Shown: piece by piece, positions 1 to 52,881 of the stretch | Layout of the letters: each line of letters starts with the position of its first letter | How positions within the stretch are numbered: position 1 is the first letter of the stretch | From: a virus | Taxonomy: Duplodnaviria; Caudoviricetes | Virus record (IMG/VR): IMGVR_UViG_3300020446_000014 | Location: 1-52,881 of that record | DNA: 52,881 bases | Direction: 5' to 3' (one strand) | Position numbers and translations under genes: made by a program | Notes under the pieces: generated by a model | Databases searched by the model: none | Told to the model about the DNA's origin: nothing | Seen by the model: only the letters and a program-made list of their open reading frames with translations

Positions 1-3000
1 ATAAGCCGGGAAAGACAAATCTCACATCACCGGGTGCGGATGTGAAGGATCCTGCAGCACCCGATACGGATTCCAAGTCGGAAGATGGTTCTTTGGAATA
101 TACAGGTTCTGAACCTTTTAAAGATTTTAAAGAAAAAAAATCAGTAATAACAGAAGAAGGTGAAGCAGAATTAAGACAACTTGGAGATGGTGAATTTCAA
201 CCTATTGAGCTAGAAGAGGTTGTTGTTGAAGGAGTAGACAAAACAAAAATAAGAGAAGCTAAAGAAAGAGACGCTAGAATTAAAGCTATTTCTAGTATAT
301 CAAAAATTCCTGAATTAGGTGTTTCAGTTTCAGCAGGAGTTGCAGCAACAACTTTAGATATAACAAAAGGATTTTTAGAATTAATAGATAAATATGGATC
401 AGTACCAGTTACTAATGCTATTGGTAAAGCTTTAGGGTATGACGCGACTCTTAAAGAAGATTTACAATTAAGTGCTGATAACTATGCTGCTTTTGATGAA
501 GTAACTAATTTGTTTAGAAATTATACTATTAAAAAGTTTGATGAAAAGGGCAATGAAATTGATATAGTAGGTTTACTTAAGAAAGGTGATTACGAAAATG
601 CAGCAGATTTGTCAATAAGTGAAGGTTTTAGTGCTGCACCTTATTTAGCTTTAAGTATAATAAGTCCTATTTACGGGAGTGCTTTAATTGGCGCATCTGT
701 TACCGGCCAAGAAATAGCAACAGCATTAAAAGAAAGACCTGAAGAGTCTTTATTAAAGTTATATGGAGCATCTGCTTTAAAAGGAGGTGTTGAATTTGCA
801 ACTAATGCTATAGGCGGTGGTTTACAAAGAGGATTTTTAGGAATTGGTAAAACATTAAATATAGGCACAAATGCTTATAAAAAAGCAGCAAAAGAGTTTA
901 CTAAAACTTATATGGGTAAATTTGCCTCGTCAGCAGCTGGATTAACTAAATCAGGCGCAGTAAATTTTATAGAAGAATTTTCTGCTGAAATTGGCAATTC
1001 ATTAGTTGACAATTTTGTTTATGGTGATAAACAAGAGTTTTATGCTGAAATAAGAAAAGCAACTAACGCTGGATTTGCAGGACTTGTATTAGGAGCCCCA
1101 ATAGGTGGTATTGGTGGGTTTAACTCTATAGCATCTAAAAATGAAGCTTTAAAATTTATTGCCCCTGCACAATGGAGAAAAGATTATGGCAAGTTAAGAT
1201 ATAGATTAAGTCAAGTTGAAGTAGATTTACAAAACGCACCAGAAAATAAAAAACAAAAATTTACAAAACAAAAAAGAAAGATAGAGTCTCTTATGAAAAT
1301 GAGAGAACAGCAATTAGCTGAATCTTTTAATAATTTGACTAAAAAAGAAAAGAAAACATATCTTGAAAATCTTAAAATTATTGATGATGCATTTGGCGAA
1401 ATTAATAATGATAGATACACTGATGCGCAACAATTAGAAGCTAAAGAAAGATTAGATAGAGCCGCTGCTGAAAATCAAATTTTAGTTGGACAAGAATTTG
1501 CTAATGCTGATGAAGAAATAGCATTAAGAATTATTGCAAGAGAAATAAGAAGTTCTGAAATAATAAAAGAATCACTTAAAAAAGCAAACGCTGCAGGTAT
1601 AAAAGATTTAGAAATAAAATTTGCTACTTCTGAAGATCTTAATAATCCAAGATTAGAAGGATTAAAAACAAGTGAAGGTGTTTATGATTCTAAAACTAAA
1701 ACTATATATATAAATCAAGCTATTGCTAATGAAGCTGAGCAAACAAATGTTATAGGCCATGAACTTTTGCATTATATTATGGCTCAAAAATTTGCTGTAG
1801 ATGATGCCTCTTTAGAACCTTTAGTTAATTCATTTAAAGAATATCTTAAAAAAACACAGCCTAGAATTTATGAAAAAATACAACAGCGAATTGATGAGTA
1901 TTATAGTGAAATAAATGAGGCGGGTGAAAAAGTAATTAAACAAGGAGCTCTGGAAGAATATTTTAATGTATTTTCTGATCTTGTTTCTAAAGAAAAAGTA
2001 ATTGTTAATGAAAGCTTCTCTGATAAAATAAAAAATACAACAAAAAGATTTTTAAATAGTCAAGGCTTTGGAAGTGTTGAATTAAATACAGGAAAAGAAG
2101 TTTTTGATTTTATAAGAAATTATACAAAAAATATTAAAAATTTTAACTTTAAACAATTAGGGGTAGATTTAAAATCTTCAGAAATACCTAAAAAGGTACA
2201 GGAAACAGTTAATGAAGAACAAACAAAGTTTTCTAAATCAGGAGCTTCAGAAAGAGTACAAGAAATATATGAATCTCAAGGTGCGGCTAATGCTTTAGAT
2301 ATAATAGATCAGTTTAAACCTATAACAAATAAAATAGTAAACAGATATAAAGATGTACCTGGTTTTGAATTTGAATTATTAAGAGATGAAATAGAAACAG
2401 GTAAAAGAGGTATACTTGACATGATAATGGATTACACACCTGAAAAAGCAAAAGGTGCTCCATTAGCTGCTTATATAAATAGCTTATTACCAAAAAGAGC
2501 TATTGAAGCGGCAAACCGTATATTAGACACTGAATTTAAACTTGATGTTACAGAGGCTAAAAGTGTTACTGATACAACAACAGAAGAAGTAACAGAAATA
2601 CAAGAACAAGAAACATCTGAAGAATTAAAAAGTTTACGCAAAAAAATGGGTATTGGTGATGAAATAATACCTATTGTTTTTGGAGCTGTTCAAAAAACTT
2701 TTGGCACCAAACTACCTGATATTGATGAAAAAACCTTTAAAAAAGAATTAGAAAAAAGATATAGAACAGAACTTAAAAAGCCTATTTCTAAATTATTTGG
2801 TAAAGGAGAAGCATATGAATCTTTTTTACGCGATAATTTTGAAACAATATATAATTCATTACCTCAATCTATATTTAATAAAAGATTAAAAGAATTTGCT
2901 GAGCCTGTATTAGATGAAGATGGAAAACAAAAAAGAGAAAAAACAGCTGAGGGTAATAAAATATTTACTAAGAAAAAAATATCTAAAGCTGAGTTTATAA

Positions 3001-6000
3001 AATATTTTTTAGGCAGCGACGTAGGAAGATCTACACAAGGTACAAGAAAAACAGCAATAGTAGAAGCTGTAGCAGAAGCATTTGCATTCGATGCTACCAT
3101 GGAAGTTTTATCTGATCCTGCAATTTTACAGAAAGCTGAAGATATAGCTGAATTACAAGGCAAAAAATTACCTGAAAATTTTTTAAATAAATTAAGCGAA
3201 ATAATTGATAGACCTATTAATCTTAAATTTTCTATATCTTTATCTAAAGCAATGGGATTAGAAAGCAAAGATGCTTTTTCTTATACAAACTTTAACGACG
3301 TTAATTTAGGTAGAATAGGTTATGTAGATTTATCAGAAAAAATGATAGCTGCTTATGGTATTCAAGAATTTGTAAATATTATTGATCCTCTTGTTGGCAG
3401 ACAATATAAAAGTAAAAAAGACCCTAGAGGAATTAGTGTAGCTAAAGGTATATCTGTTACAGAAGAAGAATTTAAAAAATATGAAAACGTATTTTTTGTA
3501 AGAAGTAAAATTGATGATAAATATAGAACAGCACAATTTTTAACATTAGGTAGAAAAGATTTTTACGAAAATATTTTAGCTAAAGCTATTAATAAAAAAG
3601 TAGTTTGGACTGGTAGAAGATTAATAATTGATGGTAAAGTAATTGAAAGACAAACGGTTCCACCTCAACAACCTACTAGTAAAGGAAATTATCCTGGTTT
3701 TGAAAATAAAGAAGGATGGGATGCTACTATGCCTGAAAGAGTAAATTTTGCAACAGATCAAAGAAGAGGGTTTAAAAAAATTGTAGATATGTTAAGCCTT
3801 ATATATAATAACTCAGATAAAACAAGAAATGAAGTAGCTAAAATAGGTATGATATTAAATAGTTTTAATTCAAGCACCGATGCTTTAGTTAGAACAGCTG
3901 CTATTCCTGGATTAGAAATGAGAGTTGAGGGATTAAAAAGTGATGAATATAGATACGAGCATACACAACCAGCATCTGAAACTTTAAGACAATTAGCAAA
4001 ATTAATTGTTGGAAATGAAAAAGCTCAGTCATTTGATGAAATAATGGAAAACTTTAGAGTTGCTATAATACCTAAAACATATGATGCAATTATAAATAAA
4101 ACAAAAGCTGACGGAAAAACATTACAAAGTAACTCCCCTTTAGATAGTGATGGTAATTTAATAAAACCTTCTGATCCAACTAAGCCCACAAGATATGTAG
4201 CAGCTGAAAAAGAAATTGCAGATGCTGGATTACCTCCTTTAATTTTAGAAGATTCACAATTAAAATATTCTAGATCATTAAGTAAAGAATTTAATAAATT
4301 ATTAGAACAAACTACAGGAGTTCCATTTTACGAAAAGTTTTCACCTGTTAAAGCTACAATGATGGGAAGGGGTAAAGGTAAAAAATTCTTTATACCTTAT
4401 TCAGCAGATGACTTTGTAGGTTTATTATATGCGACATTAGGCACTAAAAAGCAAGGCGGTAATGAACAAATGAAATGGTATCAAGAAAATTTACTTAGAC
4501 CATTTTCTCGCGGTATACAACAATATGAAACTGCAAAACAAGTTGCATTACGTAATTGGCAAGTTCTTAAGAAAGAAGCTAAAAAAAATGTACCTGGTGG
4601 TTTAAATAAAGTCAATGAAACCGGATTTACAAATCAAAATTCATTAAGAGTTTATATGTGGCGTAAACAAGGTATAAAAGATAAAGATATACCTGGAATA
4701 AGCTCGCAAGAATTAAGAGATAATAGTAGAATAGTAAGAAATAATCCTAAGCTAAAAGCTTTTGCTGAAAGATTAATGGCTTTAAACCCTGAAGGTTATC
4801 CTCCGCCATCTACAGAATGGATAGCTGGTGATATTACTACTGATTTAGTTTCTTATATAAATGATGTAAAGAGAGCTGAATATTTAACTCAATGGAAAGA
4901 AAATGTTGATCAAATATTTAATGATCAAAATAAAAACAAGTTAAAAGCATTATACGGTGAATCATATATTAAAGCATTAGAAAACATGCTTTATAGAATG
5001 GAAAAGGGTAGAAATAAATTTAAAGATGCTAGCGATATTGAAAGAAAGTTTCAAACATGGACTAACAATTCTGTAGGTACTATAATGTTCTTTAACGCTA
5101 GGTCTGCTGTACTGCAAACATTATCTGCTGTTAACTTTATAAACTTTAGTGATAATAATCCAATTGCTGCGGGTATAGCATTAGCTAATTTTCCGCAGTA
5201 TGTAAAAGATTTTTCAACATTATTTAATTCAGACTTTTTAAAACAAAGACGTTCTGGTTTACAAACTGATGTAAATGCTGATGAAATTGCAAAAGCAGCA
5301 GCTACATCTAAAAACCAAGTACAAGCAATGCTTGCTGCAATACTTAAGTTTGGATTTACACCAACACAAATTGCTGACTCATTTGCTATTGCTTCAGGTG
5401 GTGCTACGTTTTATAGAAACAGAATAAACAAATACAAAAAAGAAGGATTAAGTCAAAAAGAAGCAGAACAAAAAGCATTTACAGACTTTCAAGAAATAGC
5501 AGAAGAAACACAACAGTCTGCTAGGCCTGATAGAATATCTATGCAACAAGCAGGTTCATTAGGTAGACTTGTATTAGCATTTGGTAACACTCCAATGCAA
5601 TATGCAAGGCTTACAAAAAAGGCTACATTAGATTTAATTAATGGAAGAGGAGATTGGAAGACAAATATAAGTAAGATTGCGTATTATAGTGTAATACAGA
5701 ATATTATATTCTCCGCTTTACAACAAGGACTATTTGCACTGCTATTTGATGATGAAGAAGAAGATGATAAGAAAGCAAGATATTATAGAATAGGTAATAG
5801 TAGTGCTGATACATTATTAAGAGGTATGGGGGTTTATGGTGCTGCCGCGGCAACAGTTAAGAATATGATTATCAAGATAGTAGAAGAAGCTAAAAAATCT
5901 AGGCCTGATTATACTAAAGTTGCAATAGAAGCAACAGCCATATCACCGCCTATAAACTCTAAATTAAGAAAACTTGTTTCAGCTGGTAAAACATTTACAT

Positions 6001-6314
6001 ATAAGCAATCAAAAGAAAAAGTATTTACAGAAGGATTTAGTTTAGATAATCCAGCTTTTTTAGCCGCTGGAAAAGTAATTTCTGCTGGAACTAATTTACC
6101 CGCTGACCGTATAGTTTTAAAAATGGATCACATATATACAGCAATGCAACCTGAAACAGAACTTTGGCAAGGTACTGCATTAATGCTTGGATGGGGTGAA
6201 TGGGAATTAGGTATGATAGAAAAGCAAACCAAAAAAGAAAGTAAAGCAAAGTCCTTTTTGAAAACAAAAAAATTAAAAAGTGGTTTAAAAAGAAAAAAAT
6301 TAAAAACAAAATGA
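1..6314 (+). CDS. Giant multidomain virion/ejection (polyvalent) protein, 5'-truncated; zincin metallopeptidase, sigma70 region-2-like segment, EHxxP nuclease-like segment, helical C-terminal domain
   Basis: Frame is open from the window edge (KPGKTNLTSPGADVK before the GTG at 42). GVYD..TKTIYIN..VIGHELLH zincin motif at 1758-1772 with downstream EE. Sigma-like stretch at 2301-2525. Lies at the end of the structural operon. Confidence 0.75.
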   Translation, partial: KPGKTNLTSPGADVKDPAAPDTDSKSEDGSLEYTGSEPFKDFKEKKSVITEEGEAELRQLGDGEFQPIELEEVVVEGVDKTKIREAKERDARIKAISSISKIPELGVSVSAGVAATTLDITKGFLELIDKYGSVPVTNAIGKALGYDATLKEDLQLSADNYAAFDEVTNLFRNYTIKKFDEKGNEIDIVGLLKKGDYENAADLSISEGFSAAPYLALSIISPIYGSALIGASVTGQEIATALKERPEESLLKLYGASALKGGVEFATNAIGGGLQRGFLGIGKTLNIGTNAYKKAAKEFTKTYMGKFASSAAGLTKSGAVNFIEEFSAEIGNSLVDNFVYGDKQEFYAEIRKATNAGFAGLVLGAPIGGIGGFNSIASKNEALKFIAPAQWRKDYGKLRYRLSQVEVDLQNAPENKKQKFTKQKRKIESLMKMREQQLAESFNNLTKKEKKTYLENLKIIDDAFGEINNDRYTDAQQLEAKERLDRAAAENQILVGQEFANADEEIALRIIAREIRSSEIIKESLKKANAAGIKDLEIKFATSEDLNNPRLEGLKTSEGVYDSKTKTIYINQAIANEAEQTNVIGHELLHYIMAQKFAVDDASLEPLVNSFKEYLKKTQPRIYEKIQQRIDEYYSEINEAGEKVIKQGALEEYFNVFSDLVSKEKVIVNESFSDKIKNTTKRFLNSQGFGSVELNTGKEVFDFIRNYTKNIKNFNFKQLGVDLKSSEIPKKVQETVNEEQTKFSKSGASERVQEIYESQGAANALDIIDQFKPITNKIVNRYKDVPGFEFELLRDEIETGKRGILDMIMDYTPEKAKGAPLAAYINSLLPKRAIEAANRILDTEFKLDVTEAKSVTDTTTEEVTEIQEQETSEELKSLRKKMGIGDEIIPIVFGAVQKTFGTKLPDIDEKTFKKELEKRYRTELKKPISKLFGKGEAYESFLRDNFETIYNSLPQSIFNKRLKEFAEPVLDEDGKQKREKTAEGNKIFTKKKISKAEFIKYFLGSDVGRSTQGTRKTAIVEAVAEAFAFDATMEVLSDPAILQKAEDIAELQGKKLPENFLNKLSEIIDRPINLKFSISLSKAMGLESKDAFSYTNFNDVNLGRIGYVDLSEKMIAAYGIQEFVNIIDPLVGRQYKSKKDPRGISVAKGISVTEEEFKKYENVFFVRSKIDDKYRTAQFLTLGRKDFYENILAKAINKKVVWTGRRLIIDGKVIERQTVPPQQPTSKGNYPGFENKEGWDATMPERVNFATDQRRGFKKIVDMLSLIYNNSDKTRNEVAKIGMILNSFNSSTDALVRTAAIPGLEMRVEGLKSDEYRYEHTQPASETLRQLAKLIVGNEKAQSFDEIMENFRVAIIPKTYDAIINKTKADGKTLQSNSPLDSDGNLIKPSDPTKPTRYVAAEKEIADAGLPPLILEDSQLKYSRSLSKEFNKLLEQTTGVPFYEKFSPVKATMMGRGKGKKFFIPYSADDFVGLLYATLGTKKQGGNEQMKWYQENLLRPFSRGIQQYETAKQVALRNWQVLKKEAKKNVPGGLNKVNETGFTNQNSLRVYMWRKQGIKDKDIPGISSQELRDNSRIVRNNPKLKAFAERLMALNPEGYPPPSTEWIAGDITTDLVSYINDVKRAEYLTQWKENVDQIFNDQNKNKLKALYGESYIKALENMLYRMEKGRNKFKDASDIERKFQTWTNNSVGTIMFFNARSAVLQTLSAVNFINFSDNNPIAAGIALANFPQYVKDFSTLFNSDFLKQRRSGLQTDVNADEIAKAAATSKNQVQAMLAAILKFGFTPTQIADSFAIASGGATFYRNRINKYKKEGLSQKEAEQKAFTDFQEIAEETQQSARPDRISMQQAGSLGRLVLAFGNTPMQYARLTKKATLDLINGRGDWKTNISKIAYYSVIQNIIFSALQQGLFALLFDDEEEDDKKARYYRIGNSSADTLLRGMGVYGAAAATVKNMIIKIVEEAKKSRPDYTKVAIEATAISPPINSKLRKLVSAGKTFTYKQSKEKVFTEGFSLDNPAFLAAGKVISAGTNLPADRIVLKMDHIYTAMQPETELWQGTALMLGWGEWELGMIEKQTKKESKAKSFLKTKKLKSGLKRKKLKTK

Positions 6315-20949: not shown

Positions 20950-20979
20950 ATAATATATATTACGTATTAATGGTTAAAC

Positions 20980-21723
20980 TTATAGAAAATCAACTACTTG
21001 CGCGGGATCAACGCTGTCAATTAATTTATTTATTGCATCCCTTTTTATTTGTGATATTCTCACATATGACGCAGAGCCTTTTATATTTAATTTATCTGCT
21101 ATTTCTTTTGCGGACATTTTTCCACAATCTAGGCCATAACTCATTCTTAATACATCATATTCTTTTATAGTAAGATGAGACTCCATTATAGATAATAAAT
21201 ATTTATTCATTATATCTATATTATACTCTTTTGAATTATCTGGTATTTCATAAAAAGTATTATTATCTTGATCTGTTTCATCAATAGAATAAAATACACT
21301 ATTGAAAAACATTTGTACTGTTTTTTTATCTGTTTCAGAGTTCTTACGTATATCATTTAATTTATGCTCAGGTATACGTATGTTACCCCTATTAATATCA
21401 ATAGCTCTTCTTATAGCACCTTTTATTCTTTTAGATAAGAAACTATTTAAAGTTCTTTCTGGTTCAGTTGAATCTGTTATTTGATTCCAATCTATTTTAT
21501 CTACTGCTGCTATCAAACCTATTGTTCCTTCTTGTATTAAATCATTTATTGTCATCACTCCAGATGCTTGTTGTGATGTTGAAAATTTTCTTGCTATTGT
21601 TTCAACTAAACTTATATGTGATATAATTAAATCTTGTCTGCTGTCTCCTGTGTCAGGTATATTTCCATAAGATGCAATGTCATGCTTAAATCTAACATAA
21701 TTTGCAATATTATATTTCTTCAT
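20980..21723 (-). CDS. Phage RNA polymerase sigma-70-family factor
   Basis: Region 2 (DLIQEGTIGLIAAVDK, IKGAIRRAI, IRIP) and region 4 HTH (EIADKLNI...VRISQIKRDAINKL). Confidence 0.9.
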   Translation of the reverse strand: MKKYNIANYVRFKHDIASYGNIPDTGDSRQDLIISHISLVETIARKFSTSQQASGVMTINDLIQEGTIGLIAAVDKIDWNQITDSTEPERTLNSFLSKRIKGAIRRAIDINRGNIRIPEHKLNDIRKNSETDKKTVQMFFNSVFYSIDETDQDNNTFYEIPDNSKEYNIDIMNKYLLSIMESHLTIKEYDVLRMSYGLDCGKMSAKEIADKLNIKGSASYVRISQIKRDAINKLIDSVDPAQVVDFL

Positions 21724-22327
21724 TTAATAACGCCTTTTCTTTTTTTATTTCAGCGGTTATATTTCTATATATTGTTCTTGTTGAAACATCTAATACATTT
21801 GCTATTTTACTTATTGTTATCCTATTATTGTTTTCATGTATTCCTAACATTGCTTCATAAATATCTGGTGGCTCGGCTTTTTTTCTTTTACCTATTATAC
21901 TACCAACTATTTTTAATTTTTCTATTGATGTTAATCCAGAACCTTCTTTAAAAATAATTTTACGCATTTTATTTTTTGGAGGTGCTTCTAAGTCTTGTTC
22001 AAAGACTTCATCAACTAAATTTTTAATACTTATATTATTTAGTTTTATAGTAACAAATCCATTGTCCTTATCTGCAAGATAGTGCGTTAATTCCGAAAAA
22101 TCATCATATGTCATATGTTTATTTAAATACCATAATACTAATAAATGCCATTTAAATGATTTATAAGACGTTATCATAGCTTTAGATCTAAATAATTCAT
22201 AGCACTCGTATGTACCATTTTCATAAAAGTTACCCCAACTAAAAATTTCAGAAGGGGTATCAGTTATAGGTCCGCGTCGATATATGATGCGTCTTCGATG
22301 TAGATATTCGAGATTTCTATGTGACAT
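21710..22327 (-). CDS. DNA-binding protein with C-terminal HTH (candidate replication initiator or regulator)
   Basis: ITISKIANVLDVSTRTIYRNI helix-turn-helix; first gene of the replication operon. Confidence 0.7.
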   Translation of the reverse strand: MSHRNLEYLHRRRIIYRRGPITDTPSEIFSWGNFYENGTYECYELFRSKAMITSYKSFKWHLLVLWYLNKHMTYDDFSELTHYLADKDNGFVTIKLNNISIKNLVDEVFEQDLEAPPKNKMRKIIFKEGSGLTSIEKLKIVGSIIGKRKKAEPPDIYEAMLGIHENNNRITISKIANVLDVSTRTIYRNITAEIKKEKALLNEEI

Positions 22328-22365
22328 TAGCCTACTACTATATTATATTAATTTGCTATCGTCGC
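22321..22365 (-). promoter_or_regulatory. 45-bp dyad element, copy A
   Basis: GTGACATTAGC-N23-GCTATCGTCGC; its reverse complement matches 29047-29091 at 34/45 positions; overlaps the start codon of the HTH gene. Confidence 0.7.
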
Positions 22366-22368
22366 TAT

Positions 22369-23503: not shown

Positions 23504-23702
23504 AATGTTTTGATTTTTGATATTTAATTAATTTCATTCTTATTCTATTTTTGTCCCAGTATTCAATTGTTTTATCCTGTAATAACCTATGCTTAGTATA
23601 GTGCCGAGGATCACTAAAATCGTATCCAACACGATAACCTTCTTCATACATTGTTTTAACAATTGTATATACTTCTTTAGGATCTAATACTCTAACTCCC
23701 AT
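23496..23702 (-). CDS. Hypothetical protein
   Basis: 68-aa ORF overlapping its neighbours. Confidence 0.55.
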   Translation of the reverse strand: MGVRVLDPKEVYTIVKTMYEEGYRVGYDFSDPRHYTKHRLLQDKTIEYWDKNRIRMKLIKYQKSKHYD

Positions 23703-24090
23703 TTCTTAATAATTGATTTAGTTTTTGTTCTAATATATTTATGCGCTCCATAACATCTTTAAAACTAGGTGGAGGTTGAGGAGGTACATAGTGTTCATCT
23801 AAATCACTATATATTTTATTATATACAGTGTTCATATAGCTATCATATTTAGCTTCAGTATCAAACTTTTTTAAACCATTAAGTACAGTTGCGTGATCTC
23901 TCTTTACAGCTCTACCAATAGCAGCTAAGCTTGAATAACTACAAAACTTACGTGCTAGTTTAAAATATATAAATCTAGCTTGCGATAATTCACGTGTACG
24001 TTTTTTAGTTTTTAGGTTAAATAGATTTAATTCATCTTCAACCATTTTAAGTATATCTGTAGGTCTTGCGACTCTTGTTTTTGTTTTCAT
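23692..24090 (-). CDS. Stand-alone DnaA domain IV (C-terminal HTH)-like protein
   Basis: KKRTRELSQARFI...SLAAIGRAVKRDHATVLNG; probable start MKTKTR at 24090. Confidence 0.8.
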   Translation of the reverse strand: MKTKTRVARPTDILKMVEDELNLFNLKTKKRTRELSQARFIYFKLARKFCSYSSLAAIGRAVKRDHATVLNGLKKFDTEAKYDSYMNTVYNKIYSDLDEHYVPPQPPPSFKDVMERINILEQKLNQLLRNGS

Positions 24091-24096
24091 ATTTAT

Positions 24097-24128
24097 ATTA
24101 TCCATTTATATTCGTGTTTACCTTGTAA
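24097..24128 (-). promoter_or_regulatory. Early promoter-like motif, copy 1
   Basis: + strand ATTATCC-N8-TCGTGTT-N5-TGTAA. Confidence 0.8.
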
Positions 24129-24321
24129 TTGTCCAAAGTTTGTTGTGTACAAATTTCGTTTTGTACGAACGTTTACCAGCTATAATAATATCTTGATGTT
24201 TTAGATATTCTTTTAAAGTAAATGGCTTACATTCACCGTGAATAGCTTTTTGTTTAGCCCATTGTTTTGCTTTGGCTTTTCTTTTATCTTTAACGTATTG
24301 TTTTAATTCTTGTATTGTCAT
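24118..24321 (-). CDS. Hypothetical basic protein
   Basis: 67-aa ORF. Confidence 0.55.
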   Translation of the reverse strand: MTIQELKQYVKDKRKAKAKQWAKQKAIHGECKPFTLKEYLKHQDIIIAGKRSYKTKFVHNKLWTITR

Positions 24322-24472
24322 TTCTTTTTAATTATAGTTAAACCTTTTTTTCCAAAAGTATTTTTATATCCAAATTCATAGCCATCAGCTAATTCATATT
24401 TGATATTTTTTGCTGGAGGTATATTAGCACGACCTCCCATATATTTATCTATGAGGTATTGTTCTATATTCA

Positions 24473-24733
24473 TTATGATAATTGTTTTGCTTTATAAACT
24501 GTATATGGTTCAAGGGATTTAATTGGCATCCTATATTTAGATTCATCAATAAGTTTAGCCATTCTAATCCATACTCTTAAGTCTCTAATGTCACCCATAA
24601 TTCTTTTATAATTTAATTCAGGCCACATACCTTTGTGTCTTTCTTTAAACCCTTCTCGTATATTCAAACGGTAGTTAGCTATTTTTGATATGAGCATTGA
24701 TTCAATGCGATCGTCTATATATGTGTTATCCAT
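24473..24733 (-). CDS. Hypothetical protein
   Basis: 86-aa ORF downstream of the tRNA. Confidence 0.55.
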   Translation of the reverse strand: MDNTYIDDRIESMLISKIANYRLNIREGFKERHKGMWPELNYKRIMGDIRDLRVWIRMAKLIDESKYRMPIKSLEPYTVYKAKQLS

Positions 24734-24753
24734 TTTATTTAATTTAAAATTAG

Positions 24754-24826
24754 TTGCGCGGGCAGGATTCGAACCTGCGACCTCAGGGTTATGAGCCCTG
24801 CGAGCTGGCCACTGCTCTACCGCGCT
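24754..24826 (-). tRNA. tRNA-Met(CAT), initiator type; CCA not encoded
   Basis: AGCGCGG acceptor stem with an unpaired 1:72 position, anticodon arm CAGGG-CTCATAA-CCCTG (three G-C pairs), T-arm GCAGG-TTCGAAT-CCTGC. Confidence 0.93.
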
Positions 24827-24830
24827 AAAA

Positions 24831-25106
24831 GTTAGGGAATTGTTTAGTTCACTGTGGGCTCGCTTCTGAACGAAGTTACATCGCCTCCCCTAAACTTTTC
24901 CCTATATAATAACAGACGAGGTAGGTTTATTTCCACAGAGCCTACATTGTCATCACTTTATGCAACCCTCACCTTTGCTTTTCGTTTACTCTCCCATGCT
25001 AGCCAAGAGGTACGCCGGTTTTTTTGGGTTACTGTGGCCCGTCTGTATAAGATGCCCGATAGCTATATTAACTGAGGGAAATTCTAAAAAACCTCAACTA
25101 CCGGGC
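24831..25106 (-). ncRNA. Putative structured ncRNA (three domains, one pseudoknot) upstream of the tRNA
   Basis: GC-enriched region with no credible ORF; several complementary arms whose mismatches read as G.U pairs on the minus strand. Confidence 0.6.
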
Positions 25107-25137
25107 GGTTGAACACACACACAATTTGAAAAAAAGT

Positions 25138-26037
25138 TTATAATTGTTGATTAAGTATATAATTAATCACTTGCTTAGGTGTGCCCGTCATTTTATTTAT
25201 TTTGCCATGTTCGTCGTGAAATTCTAATTGATAGAAAGCTGGACGGTGTATAGCAAAAGGTGTATCATATTTGTTTCCTGCCATATTATTCATCTTTAGG
25301 TATATAATCATCTTCAGGTCGGTATTCAAATTTATCTCGCACGCGACCTTTTTGACTTGGTCTAGGTATACTATAACCTACGATCGGATTTATGTTGTGG
25401 TTCCAAAAGTCCCACGGCATTTCCTTTGTTTCAATTTTATCATCTAATATTCCCATAGGGTCATTATCAAATATTTCTTGTAATATTTTATCTTTTTTAT
25501 TCTTCGTCATCTTCGTTGTCTTTATGTTCTTCAATATAATCTTGTACTTCATACTCTGGTAAGTATATGTCTATGTCTGATATGTAAATGATTGCTTCAT
25601 TCATACCGTCATCTTCACCCACTTGTTTAATACGCTCAATAACTTGTTCAAATGATGGTTCATAATAGTATACATCATATTCAAAGTCTAAGTTGTGTGG
25701 GTCTTCAGTCATAACGTGTAGGTCATACCCGTCAGCTGTGTGCCATTCACCGATTTCAAGAGCGGTGCCTGATTTCCAATCTTCAGTTATTTCAGCTACT
25801 TTTAATAGCTGTGCTAATTGTTCTATATGTGTCATTTTAATATTCTTTTAATTTTTTAATTACTAATTGTCTTATATCTGTTATTGCTTCATTAAAATAA
25901 TCATCACTGAGTTCATCAACTTCTGTACCATCAACAGCCCATGCAATGCTATTATTAATGTGTTCATTTATTACGTCAGCAACGTTTGTTGCTATTTCAT
26001 CTAATTCTTTTTTCATAATATTTAATATTCTAAGCAT
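25138..26037 (-). CDS. Cluster of four small early hypothetical genes (25138-~25284, 25286-~25513, 25497-25835, 25837-~26016)
   Basis: Tightly packed minus-strand ORFs with A-rich leaders. Confidence 0.55.
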
Positions 26038-26110
26038 TCACCACAAATATCACAGAATTCAAATTCTTCTTCTGCCATTGGTTGAAAGCATATTTGACAA
26101 GTAAATTCAT

Positions 26111-26308
26111 TCATACTATTTCAAGATTTAGTTCACTAGCTACATAATTAATATGCTTTGTAGTTGTTGCGCTGTATGACCCTACACCTGGAACGTACCA
26201 GTTTAATCTGTATAGTTTGCCATCTTTTATTTCAGCAACGTGTGTGTCATATGATATAACGTCGTTGCCAATTATTTTTAGGTTTTGTTTGTATCTGTCT
26301 AATTTCAT
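26111..26308 (-). CDS. Early hypothetical protein (SYDTHVA...YSATTTKHINY type)
   Basis: 65-aa ORF in the early operon. Confidence 0.65.
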   Translation of the reverse strand: MKLDRYKQNLKIIGNDVISYDTHVAEIKDGKLYRLNWYVPGVGSYSATTTKHINYVASELNLEIV

Positions 26309-26309
26309 T

Positions 26310-26540
26310 TTATTTAGTATTTGTTGTTATTAATTCGCCATCTAGTTCAGCTTTGTCAATCCAAGCATGAAGCTTTACGGTCATGTATTCAATTACATCT
26401 TCAACGTCATATCCGTCTTCCCACATTTTAGGGACAAATTTTTCAAATGCATATCTTAAATCCCAGTCAGCATTTGTAAGGTTATCAATTCTTGTTACTT
26501 TTGATTGTATGTCTAAGTATGTTTGTATTTGTGTGTTCAT
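26310..26540 (-). CDS. Early hypothetical protein
   Basis: 76-aa ORF directly downstream of promoter-like motif copy 2. Confidence 0.65.
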   Translation of the reverse strand: MNTQIQTYLDIQSKVTRIDNLTNADWDLRYAFEKFVPKMWEDGYDVEDVIEYMTVKLHAWIDKAELDGELITTNTK

Positions 26541-26576
26541 AATATTTAATTTTAATTGTTATTGTTATTCATAATT

Positions 26577-26609
26577 ATTATCCGATTACTATCGTGTTAG
26601 GTCTGTAAA
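26577..26609 (-). promoter_or_regulatory. Early promoter-like motif, copy 2
   Basis: ATTATCC-gattacta-TCGTGTT-aggtc-TGTAAA. Confidence 0.8.
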
Positions 26610-26621
26610 AATGTATAGCAT

Positions 26622-27910
26622 TTAGCCAATGTATTGTAGTTCTTTTTTAACTTTCTTTAATATTTTAAAACTACTTTGTGCATTCTGCCATACGCCATAA
26701 TCAGGACCTAATTCAACTAAAGTGTTTATTGCTACTTTAGCATCCAGTAATAAGTCTTGAGCATTAGCTCTTGTTGTTTCTTGTTGTGTTTTCATATTAA
26801 TGTATTATCGGTTTGTTTTTATGGACCATCCATTCACAATTTGTAATGTTGTGGCCTAGTTCAGTTAGCTTTGATTCAAGGTCCTCATTATCTACATCCC
26901 ATACACTAATAGGATATTGACAGACATCACCTTGCTCAAAATCTAATACGGTTACATATTTCATTGGTTCTATCATATTATTTGTTTTAGGTTCCTGCAA
27001 ATGTCCAAGGATTATTTGCACAGTATTCATTAATTTCTTTCTCACGTTTTAATATATTTGGTAGGTCAACTAATGTGTCTTGAATACGCTGAGCACATTC
27101 TATGACGTTGTTCTCATTGACTTGAATTATACTATCACCCATGGCGGTTTTTAATCTTAATACTTTACCACCATAGAGTGCATTGTCTTCAAGTGTAAAA
27201 TACCATTCGCCGTTATGACTTGCATTGTAGCCAGGGAAATGGCCATCTAAAAATTGTTTTATTATGTATTCGTTAAGTGTTGTTCTTTTTGTATTCATCC
27301 TATATAATTTTTTTTGATTTGTTGTTTTAAATAATTGCGTCGAGTTAATAGTTTTTCGTTGGTGTATAGCAATTGACCTTGTTGGGCCAGTGGCATACCT
27401 TCGATTGATAACTCTTGTATCAATTCTAGTTTTGCTTCGACTGCTTTTAATTCATCTAATATTGTGTCCATTTATTTGTAATTTATAATTCCTCTTATAT
27501 CTTTTTCATCAAAGTCCCAGCGATTTAATATGCGCTTTACTATTTCATCTTCAGAGACGCCTTGGCGTTCCCATTTGTCTATTAGTTCTATTATATATTC
27601 TACTAGCATAATGTGTTTTTTATTTTGATTAGATTTGTTAATGTGTCTGTTATTGTTTCTTTTTTGCCATCAGCATATGTGATGTTGAGGTTAAACTTTT
27701 CTTTTATTAAACTACCTGTGATGTTCCAGTCAATTGTTTTTGTTTTCATTTTATATTTTTTATTAGATTATGTATTTCTTTTGTGTCTTTTATATGATAA
27801 TTAGAGTGGTACTTATCATTTACTTTTATTATTGTGTCTATTAGATAATCAAATTCTTTATCAGTGTAGTAAAGTTCAATTGATATTTTTTTAGTGTGTA
27901 TTTGTTTCAT
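26622..27910 (-). CDS. Cluster of tiny early hypothetical genes (e.g. 26622-26795, 26797-~26975, 26987-27298, 27746-27910)
   Basis: Consecutive 45-100 aa minus-strand ORFs, several below the track cut-off. Confidence 0.5.
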
Positions 27911-27935
27911 TTTGTTTTATTTAGTATTCAATTAT

Positions 27936-27968
27936 ATTATCCAATTTGATTCGTGTTTAGTTTGTAAA
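27936..27968 (-). promoter_or_regulatory. Early promoter-like motif, copy 3
   Basis: ATTATCC-aatttgat-TCGTGTT-tagtt-TGTAAA. Confidence 0.8.
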
Positions 27969-28379
27969 ATGTATAGCATTAGAGTTCAAATCTAGTATGT
28001 GCATAGTACACTTTAGTTGTATTGATATGGTTCCAGTGAGCATTTCTTGCAAAGGTTATTCTTGTTGGACCTTTAGAACCAAGTCTATACATAGTCATTT
28101 GTCTTTCAGTTTGCTTTGCTTGTCTTGCTAATTTTTTCTCTAATTTAGTTTTCATAAGGTGTGTATTTTATTTATTATTAAATTTTAGTTATGTGTTATT
28201 GTGCTTTGTCTCTGGTTATGTCAAAGAATTTATTGAGTAATATTTTCATATCTTGATGTGCTTGCTCAGGTAAATTATCAAAATCATCAGAGTTTAGTAA
28301 ATTTTCTAAAGCATATTCAATTAATTGTGATTGACTTTTTGTTAATTGCATTTTATTTTTATTTTATGTGTTCATATAT

Positions 28380-28412
28380 ATTATCCAGTTGAGGTCGTGT
28401 TTACTTTGTAAA
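28380..28412 (-). promoter_or_regulatory. Early promoter-like motif, copy 4
   Basis: ATTATCC-agttgagg-TCGTGTT-tactt-TGTAAA. Confidence 0.8.
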
Positions 28413-28558
28413 TTTCCAAGTAGCATTTTCAAATTCATCACAGTATTCACTGTCCCAAAGCATTTCTTCTAATACTTTATTAATTTCTTTTTTGCTTAAA
28501 TCTGTTTGTAGTGTAATAGTTATATTTTGCATTTTATTATATTTTTATGTTCTTATAT

Positions 28559-28591
28559 ATTATCCAATTCAGTTCGTGTTAACTCTGTAAA
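28559..28591 (-). promoter_or_regulatory. Early promoter-like motif, copy 5
   Basis: ATTATCC-aattcagt-TCGTGTT-aactc-TGTAAA. Confidence 0.8.
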
Positions 28592-28621
28592 AAACTCGCG
28601 GGCTCGCTGTGTCCGATGAGG

Positions 28622-28804
28622 TTAATAAGCTTTTGAAACTCTATTGTAAAACTCTTCAATTGCTTCATTATATTTCATTTCAATTCCACAATCTTTGAAT
28701 GCAAATTTTATTATCATTTTTTCCATTTCAATTTGTATTTTGCTGCCATAATAATTCTCATCATTTGCTAATAATTCTAATTCTTTTTTTATAATTTCTA
28801 ACAT
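28622..28804 (-). CDS. First early hypothetical gene
   Basis: 60-aa ORF downstream of motif copy 6. Confidence 0.6.
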   Translation of the reverse strand: MLEIIKKELELLANDENYYGSKIQIEMEKMIIKFAFKDCGIEMKYNEAIEEFYNRVSKAY

Positions 28805-28830
28805 AATTTTTATATTTTATTTACATTTAT

Positions 28831-28863
28831 ATTATCCAAAATAGTTCGTGTTTAGCTTGTAAA
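28831..28863 (-). promoter_or_regulatory. Early promoter-like motif, copy 6
   Basis: ATTATCC-aaaatagt-TCGTGTT-tagct-TGTAAA. Confidence 0.8.
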
Positions 28864-29046
28864 AATTTGCATTAAAAAGGCAAAAAGTTAAAGTGTTGAT
28901 ATACAATTAGTTAGGGGGTGGGGTTTAAAATATGGTTTTAGTTTAAGTGGCTGAGTGTCAAATAGTTACGCGTAATACAAAACCTATAAACTTATAACAA
29001 AAAAATAATTTACCTACCCGGGGTATATTAAAAAACCTTAAGTGGT

Positions 29047-29091
29047 ATGACAATAGGGTATTAATATAATAATGTAGGGGGCTAACGTCAC
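29047..29091 (+). promoter_or_regulatory. 45-bp dyad element, copy B
   Basis: ATGACAATAGG-N23-GCTAACGTCAC; inverted relative to copy A. Confidence 0.7.
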
Positions 29092-29129
29092 ACTTTTGAC
29101 TTCTGAGAATAGCATGTAATAAAATATGC

Positions 29130-35518: not shown

Positions 35519-35612
35519 AACACTATAATAATGAAAACAGTAAAAACATATAATTAAATGTAATATACTATATAACCAAAAAACAATTTTTTAACCTTAA
35601 AACCAAATACCT

Positions 35613-51346: not shown

Positions 51347-52881
51347 ATGGCAGAGCTTAAGCATACTTTCCTTAAGGGGAAGATGGATAAAGATAGCGAT
51401 GAAAGATTAGTTGAAAACGGAGCGTATAGAGATGCGCTTAATATACATGTGTCTTCTTCAGACGGTGCTAATGCTGGTGCAATAGAAAATTTATTAGGTA
51501 ATGAACAACTTTCTTCATTACAATTAAAAAATGCAAAAGTATTAGGTTCTGTAGTTTATACTTTAAAAGATAAATTGTATTGGATTGTAACTTCAGATAA
51601 TATAGATGGTATATATGAATATGACCAAATACAAAAAGAAATATCACCTATATTAATTGACACAAAAAGTGCTAGTACAAAAACTTTTTTCTCTACAATT
51701 ATAGACTCTAATTCTGATAATGAATTAATTTTAGATAATGTATCTAATACAGATATAAGTACAATATTTGGCAACGTCCCAAATAGCAATAATGATGAAA
51801 CGCTTGTTTCAAATAATATTGATCTTTATTGTGAAAATCCATATATAAAAATATCTATACCAAAAGATACGGTAATAAGAAAAGAAAATGATTTACTTGT
51901 GTTTAAGAATATACATTATTCTGGGCAAGCATATGGTGGTGTTGATTTAAATGTAGATTTTTCATTAAAAAGTGTATTGAATTTTTCAAAAAATAATATT
52001 ATAACAGGTATTAATATTATAGATGATATGCTTTTTTGGACAGATAATTTAAATGGACCAAGAAAAATAAATATTTCAAGATTTAAAAAATATACAGAGT
52101 CACAAAAATCAAATAACGTAAATATATTTGAAACACAAACAAAAGTATTGTTTGACGATAAAGATATACATGGGAATATATTTACTAATACAAGAAATTT
52201 TACAGAAGATGATATTAGTTTAGCTAAAAAAGTGCCAATGAGTGCACCCACATTATCATTATCTAATACATTAACTAATTCAGGCATTACTACAATACCA
52301 TTTTTAACTAATTTTCAAAATAATAATGTAAACGTTGACATTGGTGATGATTTATTTATACCCGTTAAAACATTACCTATTTGGAAAGTAGGAGATACTA
52401 TAACAATAATAGCTGAAAATCCAACTGTTGAAACTATTGAGCTTACAGCTACTGTAAAATCAATTTCTTTTATTGGCATAACATTAACATTAACGACTAA
52501 AGATTCTGATATAGACTATAGCTTAAACTATGAAGCTACATTTACTTTATTAGAAAAGAAACCAATTCATGAATTGTCTTTTGTTAGATTTGGTTATAGA
52601 TGGAAATATAATGATAATGAGTATTCATCTATTTCGCCTTTTTCTGAAGTTGCTTTTATACCCGGTGATACATTTAAGTATAATGCTAAAGAAGGCATTA
52701 ATACCTCAATGGAAAATCAACTTAGAATAATTAAATTATCTGATTTTGATACGGGGGATGATAATGTTTCAGAAATAGAAATATTATATAAAGAAAGTGC
52801 TAATCAAAATATATATACTTTAAGATCAATAAAAAGAATAGATTTTGAAGATACTTACGAAATAACAAAAGAACAAATACA
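51347..52881 (+). CDS. Tail stabilisation/hub protein (P22 gp10-like), 3'-truncated
   Basis: MAELKHTFLKGKMDKDSDERLVENGAYRDALNI...GAIENLLGN; LFWTDN..PRKINI; RFGYRWKY.DNEYS; runs off the window, so absent from the track. Confidence 0.75.
   Translation, partial: MAELKHTFLKGKMDKDSDERLVENGAYRDALNIHVSSSDGANAGAIENLLGNEQLSSLQLKNAKVLGSVVYTLKDKLYWIVTSDNIDGIYEYDQIQKEISPILIDTKSASTKTFFSTIIDSNSDNELILDNVSNTDISTIFGNVPNSNNDETLVSNNIDLYCENPYIKISIPKDTVIRKENDLLVFKNIHYSGQAYGGVDLNVDFSLKSVLNFSKNNIITGINIIDDMLFWTDNLNGPRKINISRFKKYTESQKSNNVNIFETQTKVLFDDKDIHGNIFTNTRNFTEDDISLAKKVPMSAPTLSLSNTLTNSGITTIPFLTNFQNNNVNVDIGDDLFIPVKTLPIWKVGDTITIIAENPTVETIELTATVKSISFIGITLTLTTKDSDIDYSLNYEATFTLLEKKPIHELSFVRFGYRWKYNDNEYSSISPFSEVAFIPGDTFKYNAKEGINTSMENQLRIIKLSDFDTGDDNVSEIEILYKESANQNIYTLRSIKRIDFEDTYEITKEQI

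Follow-up and report, generated by a model that had tools for sequence, protein, structure and literature searches.

The 52,881-nucleotide (nt) stretch analysed here, which we call the window, is the whole of the IMG/VR virus record IMGVR_UViG_3300020446_000014 (Duplodnaviria; Caudoviricetes) and is estimated to be 83% complete. It raises the question of which transcription machinery reads a three-block motif that stands six times, with fixed spacing, in front of its small leftward genes. An earlier note on this DNA had taken the motif for an early promoter that is unlike the Bacteroidota consensus and depends on a phage factor present as infection begins, and had named a virion-borne sigma-like domain as the natural candidate. 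We found that the motif is clade-wide in uncultured marine flavobacterial podophages of ~60-66 kb and occurs together with a gene for a sigma-70-family protein, and the explanation that we favour, with a confidence slightly better than even, is that the host core RNA polymerase joined to this phage sigma reads the motif as a promoter.

The motif in the window and across the clade

The pattern ATTATCC-N8-TCGTGTT-N5-TGTAA has six exact matches in the window, all on the + strand (24097, 26577, 27936, 28380, 28559 and 28831), in which 19/19 specified bases are invariant and the spacers differ. The pattern was matched 0.00 times in 100 dinucleotide-preserving shuffles of the window, and with up to 3 mismatches permitted the count stayed at 6, against 0.02 expected, with no extra copy gained; the earlier description of six fixed-spacing copies with 19 invariant bases is exact, and no such copy would be expected by chance. 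Coding from 28862 down to 11066 is on the minus strand, and read on that strand the motif is TTACA-N5-AACACGA-N8-GGATAATA or, more fully, (t)TTACAR-N3-WAACACGA-N8-GGATAATA(W)(W), and an A directly follows GGATAAT in 6/6 copies. From GGATAAT to the start of the next open reading frame (ORF), there are 6, 36, 25, 28, 26 and 26 intervening bases for copies 1 to 6, respectively, the same measure as the 7-37 nt upstream of a minus-strand ATG given previously, and in two copies the motif overlaps the preceding ORF's stop codon. The putative promoters and the genes behind them are as follows:

28831..28862, minus strand: promoter copy 6 (TTACAAGCTAAACACGAACTATTTTGGATAAT), the most upstream of the leftward arm; predicted start G 28824, ORF start 28804
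28559..28590, minus strand: promoter copy 5; predicted start G 28552, ORF start 28532
28380..28411, minus strand: promoter copy 4, overlapping the upstream ORF's stop codon; predicted start G 28373, ORF start 28351
27936..27967, minus strand: promoter copy 3; predicted start G 27929, ORF start 27910
26577..26608, minus strand: promoter copy 2, whose transcription unit passes through tRNA-Met; predicted start G 26570, ORF start 26540
24097..24128, minus strand: promoter copy 1, heading the operon onward to the genes for the helix-turn-helix (HTH) protein HTH-205 and for sigma; predicted start at the A of ATG 24090
24118..28804, minus strand: cassette of ~30 small ORFs behind the motif copies, hypervariable among relatives

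Because the first ATG behind copy 1 falls within the motif, the true start is taken to be the second in-frame ATG, at 24090. Copy 1 thus predicts a leaderless mRNA for the DnaA-C-like HTH gene 23692-24090, which the earlier note had called near-leaderless, and copies 2-6 would yield leaders of ~19-30 nt. Copy 2 is followed at once by a mini-ORF of six codons (ATG AAT AAC AAT AAC AAT TAA) at 26570-26553 (-), which precedes the real gene start at 26540.

Beyond the window, the exact 19-base pattern occurs as 84 instances in 48 IMG/VR stretches, many of them 58-66 kb long, with variable flanks, and the A after GGATAAT, which lies outside the search pattern, is present in 81/81 instances. Homologues of the sigma gene were found in 67 loci, 64 of which were scanned for the motif; a relaxed scan of these 64 gave 287 matches on the strand of the sigma gene against 2 on the opposite strand, with at least 3 relaxed matches in 37/41 loci that extend 6 kb or more upstream of sigma. 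The pattern AAYACGA-N9-GATAATA was matched 90 times in 16 near-complete genomes, against 1 match for the reversed control, and 89/90 of the matches share the strand of the sigma gene; all of them cluster over a few kb where one arm begins, with none in the ~45 kb of structural genes. Sublineages vary in the upstream block (TTACA, ATACA, ACACA, GTACA or ATCGA), in the middle block (AACACGA or AATACGA) and in the base ahead of GATAATA (G, A, C or T); ACGA-N9-GATAATA and every spacing are constant across them. The clade appears to be abundant in marine metagenomes, with >600 terminase-related stretches and at least 8000 sigma relatives found.

The exact motif is also present in two contigs of a metagenome-assembled genome (MAG), G052, titled Flavobacteriaceae bacterium, which suggests marine Flavobacteriaceae as hosts; 14/14 matches in this MAG lie in the two contigs and are clustered like those of the phage early arm. 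Of the contigs C7 and C18 (L213, L214, L216), C7 (117 kb) holds two motif clusters ~62.4 kb apart, which points to a phage assembled in tandem or as a concatemer, or else to a pair of related phages that were binned together with a host.

GATAAT agrees with the sigma-70-type -10 hexamer at 5/6 positions, A-11 and T-7 included, and the 7th base after it is a purine in 400/404 unique instances (G 222, A 178, T 4), so that the motif has what a sigma-70 -10 element generally has, namely A-11, T-7 and a purine start 6-8 nt downstream, the last of these as a predicted start. An ORF begins within 150 nt downstream of 219/244 unique instances (median, 24 nt), and open ATGs near the motif show a sharp peak at exactly six intervening bases (43 instances), which would place the start on the A of the ATG and predicts leaderless mRNAs, as at copy 1. 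A search of sequencing runs listed no RNA sample that contains the stretch. The promoter-like character claimed for the motif is thus borne out by its strand specificity, its fixed distance upstream of genes and its GATAAT with a purine 7 nt downstream.

We propose that the six copies serve as transcription promoters and belong to a class peculiar to the phage clade, in which a -10 element GATAAT(A) at -12 to -6, with a start at a purine 7 nt downstream, would be preceded by two fixed blocks, AAYACGA (about -28 to -22) and TTACA (about -38 to -34). These promoters would drive the hypervariable cassette of small, putatively early (host-takeover-like) genes, and read-through from them would reach the operon with the phage RpoD-like sigma; as the sigma gene is downstream of the promoters, a positive feedback loop would form. 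The upstream part departs from the general sigma-70 layout, since TTACA and AAYACGA are 21 bp and 9 bp, respectively, from GATAAT, and a -35 element is expected 16-18 bp upstream of the hexamer. A scan with the standard (E. coli-type) sigma-70 consensus gave 57 matches against 59.2 expected, with no enrichment. A hairpin promoter of the N4 type was rejected: folded as single-stranded DNA, the six copies formed no hairpin (z-scores of -0.85 to +1.2).

The way in which the copies are oriented and placed also bears on a role outside transcription, in which the copies would be operators or sites of replication or packaging, e.g., DnaA-box-like sites (TTATCCA on the + strand) for the DnaA-C-like protein. 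TTATCC resembles the first six bases of the DnaA-box consensus, and copy 1 stands directly before the gene with the Bac_DnaA_C domain (E 2.7e-12), but a strand bias of 287 to 2 and a fixed position before start codons speak against such sites, and the rest of the DnaA box is not conserved. That gene was found in just 2/27 distant motif-bearing loci, and dnaA-like genes are annotated in the uncultured phage MW202828.1, where the motif is missing; on these two grounds, the DnaA-box idea was rejected, and we hold any non-promoter role to be very improbable indeed.

Host promoters and the phage sigma factor

The earlier contrast with the Bacteroidota consensus holds for both host elements. The -7 box of Bacteroidota sigma-A, TAnnTTTG at -12 to -5 (register from PMC9723704), corresponds in the motif to GATAATAW, where A-11 and T-7 alone agree, and instead of the -33 TTG, 19-21 bp upstream of the -7 box, the motif reads ACA, CAA or AAA. 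The genome-wide start-site map of Flavobacterium psychrophilum is reported to contain only TAnnTTTG variants (-12 to -5), sigma-54, TAnnTTGY and an ECF-type CGT box (PMC9723704). Full host-type sites (TTG-N17-21-TAnnTTTG) occur once in sense and 7 times in antisense in the window, none of them ahead of a gene; in the host-dependent arm of the Cellulophaga phage phi14:2, there are 6 in sense and 1 in antisense. For the middle promoters of phi14:2, the published study (10.1101/2020.03.07.982082) relied on primer extension and ascribed them to the RNA polymerase of the host, and we found plain TTG-N20-TAnnTTTG promoters upstream of its genes g070, g075, g108 and g110. A host regulon was rejected for the genomes searched, in which there was no enrichment: across 150 genomes from the family to which the Flavobacteriaceae MAG belongs, AAYACGA-N9-GATAATA had 12 matches and the control had 26, TTACA-N20-GGATAATA gave 11 against 16 in 60 host-family genomes, and the matches in G052 are confined to two contigs.

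A search for late promoters in the window returned weak candidates only, GTAATATA and TATAAT-like boxes in the few intergenic gaps, with no class assignable to sigma. Boxes of the GTAATATA type at 20963 (-), 23088 (-) and 6459 (+) are in sense orientation and precede the ATGs 20949 (Erf), 23072 and 6472 by 5-8 nt. A further one at 35560 (+), 45 nt before the GroES-like gene 35613, is kept in G036, G021 and G006, and G043 has it at a distance of 52 nt. These boxes may form a second class of promoter, with a -10 element only.

If the host holoenzyme alone reads the motif, the copies would be strong immediate-early promoters for the primary sigma, similar to those of the SPO1 host-takeover module, and the phage sigma made from them would serve later genes via a different, less conspicuous promoter. 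This fits the place of the copies, which head the arm before hypervariable small ORFs with the sigma gene downstream; it solves the problem of how the system is started, and it agrees with the retention of A-11 and T-7 in the -10 box. The RNA polymerase of Cellulophaga baltica transcribes the T7 A1 promoter in vitro (10.1101/2020.03.07.982082), and the GTAATATA boxes before 6472, 20949, 23072 and 35613 could be the sigma-dependent class. We nevertheless consider this explanation unlikely, since the motif agrees with TAnnTTTG at just 2/6 specified positions and lacks a TTG at -33, the host-dependent promoters of the Cellulophaga phage resemble the host consensus and the motif does not, there is no enrichment of the motif in host-family genomes, and it is absent from 5/5 sigma-less relatives infecting the same bacterial family.

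The sigma gene and the features next to it, together with a second copy of one of them, are the following:

20980..21723, minus strand: sigma-70-family factor of 247 amino acids (aa), RpoD-like, with region 2, IRIPEH aligned to IRLPVH of SigA, and region 4
21710..22327, minus strand: HTH-205, 205 aa, with a C-terminal three-helix HTH; overlaps the start of the sigma gene by 14 nt
22320..22366, minus strand: inverted-repeat element CGACGATAGC...GGCTAATGTCACA, overlapping the ATG of HTH-205
29046..29092, plus strand: second inverted-repeat element TGACAATAGGG...GGCTAACGTCACA, where the two arms diverge

The sigma ORF scores 55.4 on TIGR02937 (cut-off 42.9), 25.1 bits on Sigma70_r2 (cut-off 24) and 23.6 on the region 4 model, just below its cut-off of 24.1; it aligns to regions 2-3.0 and 4 of SigA/RpoD, and the curated models of regions 2 and 4 place it in the sigma-70 family. 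The gene lies downstream of the six copies and is transcribed in the same direction. Sigma is encoded in 16/16 motif-bearing records that are at least 90% complete, and in 23/46 overall, the remainder being fragments, and 5/5 related phages without sigma have neither the motif nor Sigma70_r2. In the leftward arm it is the sole recognisable sequence-specific transcription protein in 12/12 near and 27/27 distant loci, and it is absent from MW202828.1, the nearest sigma-less relative; replication proteins aside, it is the only universal arm gene that this relative is missing. A tblastn search with the sigma found no match in any flavobacterial phage of the phage collection, and none of its cultured phages carries this sigma.

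The DNA-reading stretches of the sigma, KSFLSKRIKGAIRR...IRIPEH, are nearly invariant, and so is GATAATA. A T, rather than G, A or C, stands at -13 in two loci only, and the same two alone have IRIPEY in place of IRIPEH; as these belong to one lineage and represent a single event, we treat the pairing as a lead only. The absence of the motif from sigma-less relatives and its lack of enrichment in host-family genomes lend indirect support to the earlier proposal that a phage-specified factor is needed. The early arm of MW202828.1 (L208, 43.7-55.2 kb) carries 14 exact copies of a perfect 16-bp palindrome, GTGTCGTTAACGACAC, which often lie 18-25 nt before start codons and are thus an early-arm signal of a sister lineage that differs from the motif.

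The first sigma and other candidate readers

Several considerations weigh against the host core polymerase with the phage sigma as the reader: (i) TTACA is 3 bp too far upstream for a -35 box, and AAYACGA falls in the would-be spacer, a non-canonical sigma-70 geometry in view of which a second protein may take part; (ii) no sense-orientation host-type promoter was found upstream of any window gene, and with the sigma gene downstream of the motif, these or unseen promoters must fire before new sigma is made, so that the first sigma must come from leaky host initiation, from unrecognised promoters or from protein delivered with the DNA; (iii) in genomes without HTH-205, the 110 nt before the sigma start read as the last part of the gene ahead and do not contain the inverted-repeat element; (iv) the co-occurrence of motif and sigma is at the level of the clade, and shared descent could be its cause; (v) by analogy with SPO1, small early gene clusters usually use the host sigma; (vi) the C. 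baltica enzyme uses T7 A1 in vitro and, if the -10 box of that promoter begins with G, such boxes are not beyond the host enzyme.

The question of the first sigma leads to the virion, and in particular to one feature of the structural arm:

3..6314, plus strand: giant ORF, C-terminal 2103 aa, open at the 5' end, with an HExxH metallopeptidase motif at residue 586

A factor that is delivered with the DNA and reads the motif at the onset of infection, be it a packaged sigma, an ejected giant protein acting through one of its domains or a cryptic RNA polymerase of the virion, would remove the starting problem. The structural arm is crassvirus-like (crAss_MUZ_C, gene order of phi14:2), and crass-like phages inject an RNA polymerase, according to 10.1101/2020.03.07.982082. 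For the giant ORF, the ESM Atlas gave leads to "polyvalent protein" families (LPD, MuF_C), which travel with DNA, with weak scores (<0.9) that are below reliable. The virion-borne sigma-like domain of the earlier note was not recovered: Pfam gave a weak metallopeptidase signal only on ORF 3-6314, a hidden Markov model (HMM) from 54 distinct sigma homologues, run unfiltered on all six frames, matched ORF 20980-21723 alone, and in the complete relative G021, the homologue of the giant ORF and four neighbouring structural-arm proteins had no Pfam sigma match.

Signs of a polymerase were looked for as well. No DFDxD was found in the 2103 aa of the giant ORF (searched as D[FYWLIVM]DxD); PF00623 had no match in the window and four complete relatives, with controls matched in 14/14 genomes; a homologue of phi14:2 gp66 was found in none of these five, in a search that had no positive control; and PF00940 (T7-like RNA polymerase) was matched in 0/5 genomes, with no control genome matched either. 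The giant protein is a mosaic, with two modules (~555-1080 and 1414-2075) common to the clade at 42-76% identity, and BLAST found in it no similarity to the giant protein of MW202828.1, which for its part had no sequence match in the PDB. Modelled with AlphaFold from a 4-sequence alignment, the conserved C-terminal 700 aa of the giant ORF are all-helical, with a pLDDT of 48 that is too poor for the fold to be judged.

The mosaic nature of this protein, whereas the motif is invariant, counts against a delivered factor, as do the missing sigma segment and polymerase signs, and GATAAT with a purine 7 nt on is the signature of a sigma-70-type holoenzyme and not of known virion polymerases, with no N4-type hairpin present; we regard such a factor as distinctly unlikely. 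That the sigma itself is packaged in the virion, injected with the DNA and reprograms the host core polymerase at entry, towards promoters of a class read by no host sigma, seems to us quite improbable. If true, the early cassette, which re-makes sigma, would be transcribed without any host-type promoter, and the system would be a sigma-based counterpart of the injected N4 and crass-like RNA polymerases.

HTH-205 is present in 59/65 sigma loci. Its structure model (pLDDT 84.6) has no Foldseek match at E <= 0.001, and in VIA-align only its C-terminal HTH matches TetR-type DNA-binding domains (Z 5-6.4). The inverted-repeat element is an imperfect repeat of the general form TGTGACRATAGCC-N~17-GGCTAATGTCACA (TGACRATAGSS-N~17-SSCTAAYGTCA), which is clade-wide and missing where HTH-205 is missing, and it is probably the operator of HTH-205. 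The repeated word ATTAATATAATA, whose 9 matches against 5.5 expected are not significant alone, is the spacer of this element. HTH-205 as the reader of TTACA is unsupported, as it has its own, different inverted-repeat site. The lineage without HTH-205 (L086, L094, L097 and L102; most complete record, 97%) has ATCGAA instead of TTACAA as the upstream block, a swap that is an unexplained lead.

These observations bear on an activator-dependent arrangement similar to that of T4 middle promoters, in which a holoenzyme with host or phage sigma reads GATAAT only, and a phage protein bound to AAYACGA and/or TTACA replaces -35 recognition. AAYACGA is 9 bp upstream of the -10 element, where sigma-70 regions normally read no sequence, the N5 and N8/9 spacers are rigid, and the sole lineage without HTH-205 (4 loci) is the one that carries ATCGAA for TTACAA. 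HTH-205, with its different site, is dispensable for the AAYACGA-GATAATA core, the DnaA-C-like protein is encoded in only 2/27 distant loci, and no other conserved DNA-binding protein was recognised in the arm, which makes the arrangement highly doubtful in our view.

Genome setting and relation to known systems

The plus-strand arm encodes a tail fibre, GroEL, large terminase, portal and virion proteins, with the giant ORF at its end. The first part of the minus-strand arm consists of ~30 small ORFs and tRNA-Met, followed by the genes for the DnaA-C-like HTH protein, the 205-aa HTH protein and the 247-aa sigma-70-family protein; after sigma come Erf, exonuclease, primase/helicase, thymidylate synthase, MazG and ribonucleotide reductase. 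Most cassette ORFs have a homologue in 0/27 distant loci, and the promoters are conserved nonetheless. The ORF 51347-52879 (+), open at the 3' end of the window, is the beginning of a virion protein of ~2300 aa, whose G021 homologue (L209 10966-17868 (-)) contains the crassvirus muzzle C-terminal domain crAss_MUZ_C (E 8.5e-10), and the gene order of GroEL, terminase, portal, ..., giant proteins is that of the crass-like phage phi14:2. The terminase is 33-45% identical to those of Flavobacterium, Cellulophaga and Tenacibaculum phages and 63% identical to that of MW202828.1, and megablast found no close DNA relatives among cultured phages. Start codons are preceded by A-rich sequence with no Shine-Dalgarno sequences, as is expected for Bacteroidota hosts (PMC9723704).

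Two non-coding stretches stand out in this setting. One of ~300 nt (24827-25137, minus strand), just upstream of tRNA-Met, has more G+C than its surroundings, with no Rfam match and no fold signal (z 0.13); tRNA-Met was the only match in an Rfam scan of the window. The other is a conserved block between the arms at ~28900-29040, GTATTACGCGTAACTATTTGACA..CAGCCACTTAA...CCCCACCCCC, which is common to relatives; its candidate roles are those of an origin, of a packaging site and of a small RNA.

Phage sigma factors with their own promoter class are known from the Bacillus phage SPO1 (gp28, middle promoters) and from phiEco32 (gp36), where a sigma-70-family protein of the phage, encoded among the early genes, directs the host core polymerase to non-host promoters. 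The system proposed here is similar, and differs from both in that the promoters head the earliest-looking cassette, upstream of the sigma gene, have three blocks at non-canonical spacing, and belong to a phage of a Bacteroidota host whose own promoters are atypical. With the primary-sigma promoters of Bacteroidota, the motif shares A-11 and T-7, leaders of ~20 nt or none, and the lack of a Shine-Dalgarno sequence, but it has neither the -33 TTG nor the TTTG of the -7 box, and its AAYACGA and TTACA are without a host counterpart. T4 middle promoters, with their MotA box and sigma appropriation, likewise combine a -10 element with a conserved box ~10-13 bp upstream that replaces the canonical -35; here, no MotA or AsiA homologue was recognised, a third block lies further upstream, and the phage has its own sigma.

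Similarities to N4 and to the gp66 systems of crass-like phages include the podophage type, the giant proteins of the structural arm, the crassvirus-like structural genes and the clustering of the early genes at one end of an arm, whereas no hairpin and no polymerase domain or gp66 homologue was found. The early transcripts of phi14:2 have no common upstream motif, as reported in 10.1101/2020.03.07.982082; the motif described here, in contrast, is extremely regular and -10-like. A limited literature search returned nothing relevant on the motif or on sigma factors encoded by flavobacterial phages, and on early promoters of crass-like phages and promoters of Cellulophaga phages it returned only the work cited above. 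Private promoters read by a phage sigma are a known kind of system; what is new is the three-block non-canonical architecture, its position before the gene for sigma, the setting in Bacteroidota and a genome that appears to lack promoters of the host type.

To conclude, transcription in Bacteroidota and in their phages is poorly understood, and the motif promoters with their candidate phage sigma may offer a clean, directly testable case of the takeover of a flavobacterial RNA polymerase by a phage. The sigma and its promoters could also be a candidate tool for Flavobacteriia, as an orthogonal pair, and the motif may serve as a marker for early regions and start sites in hundreds of uncultured genomes.

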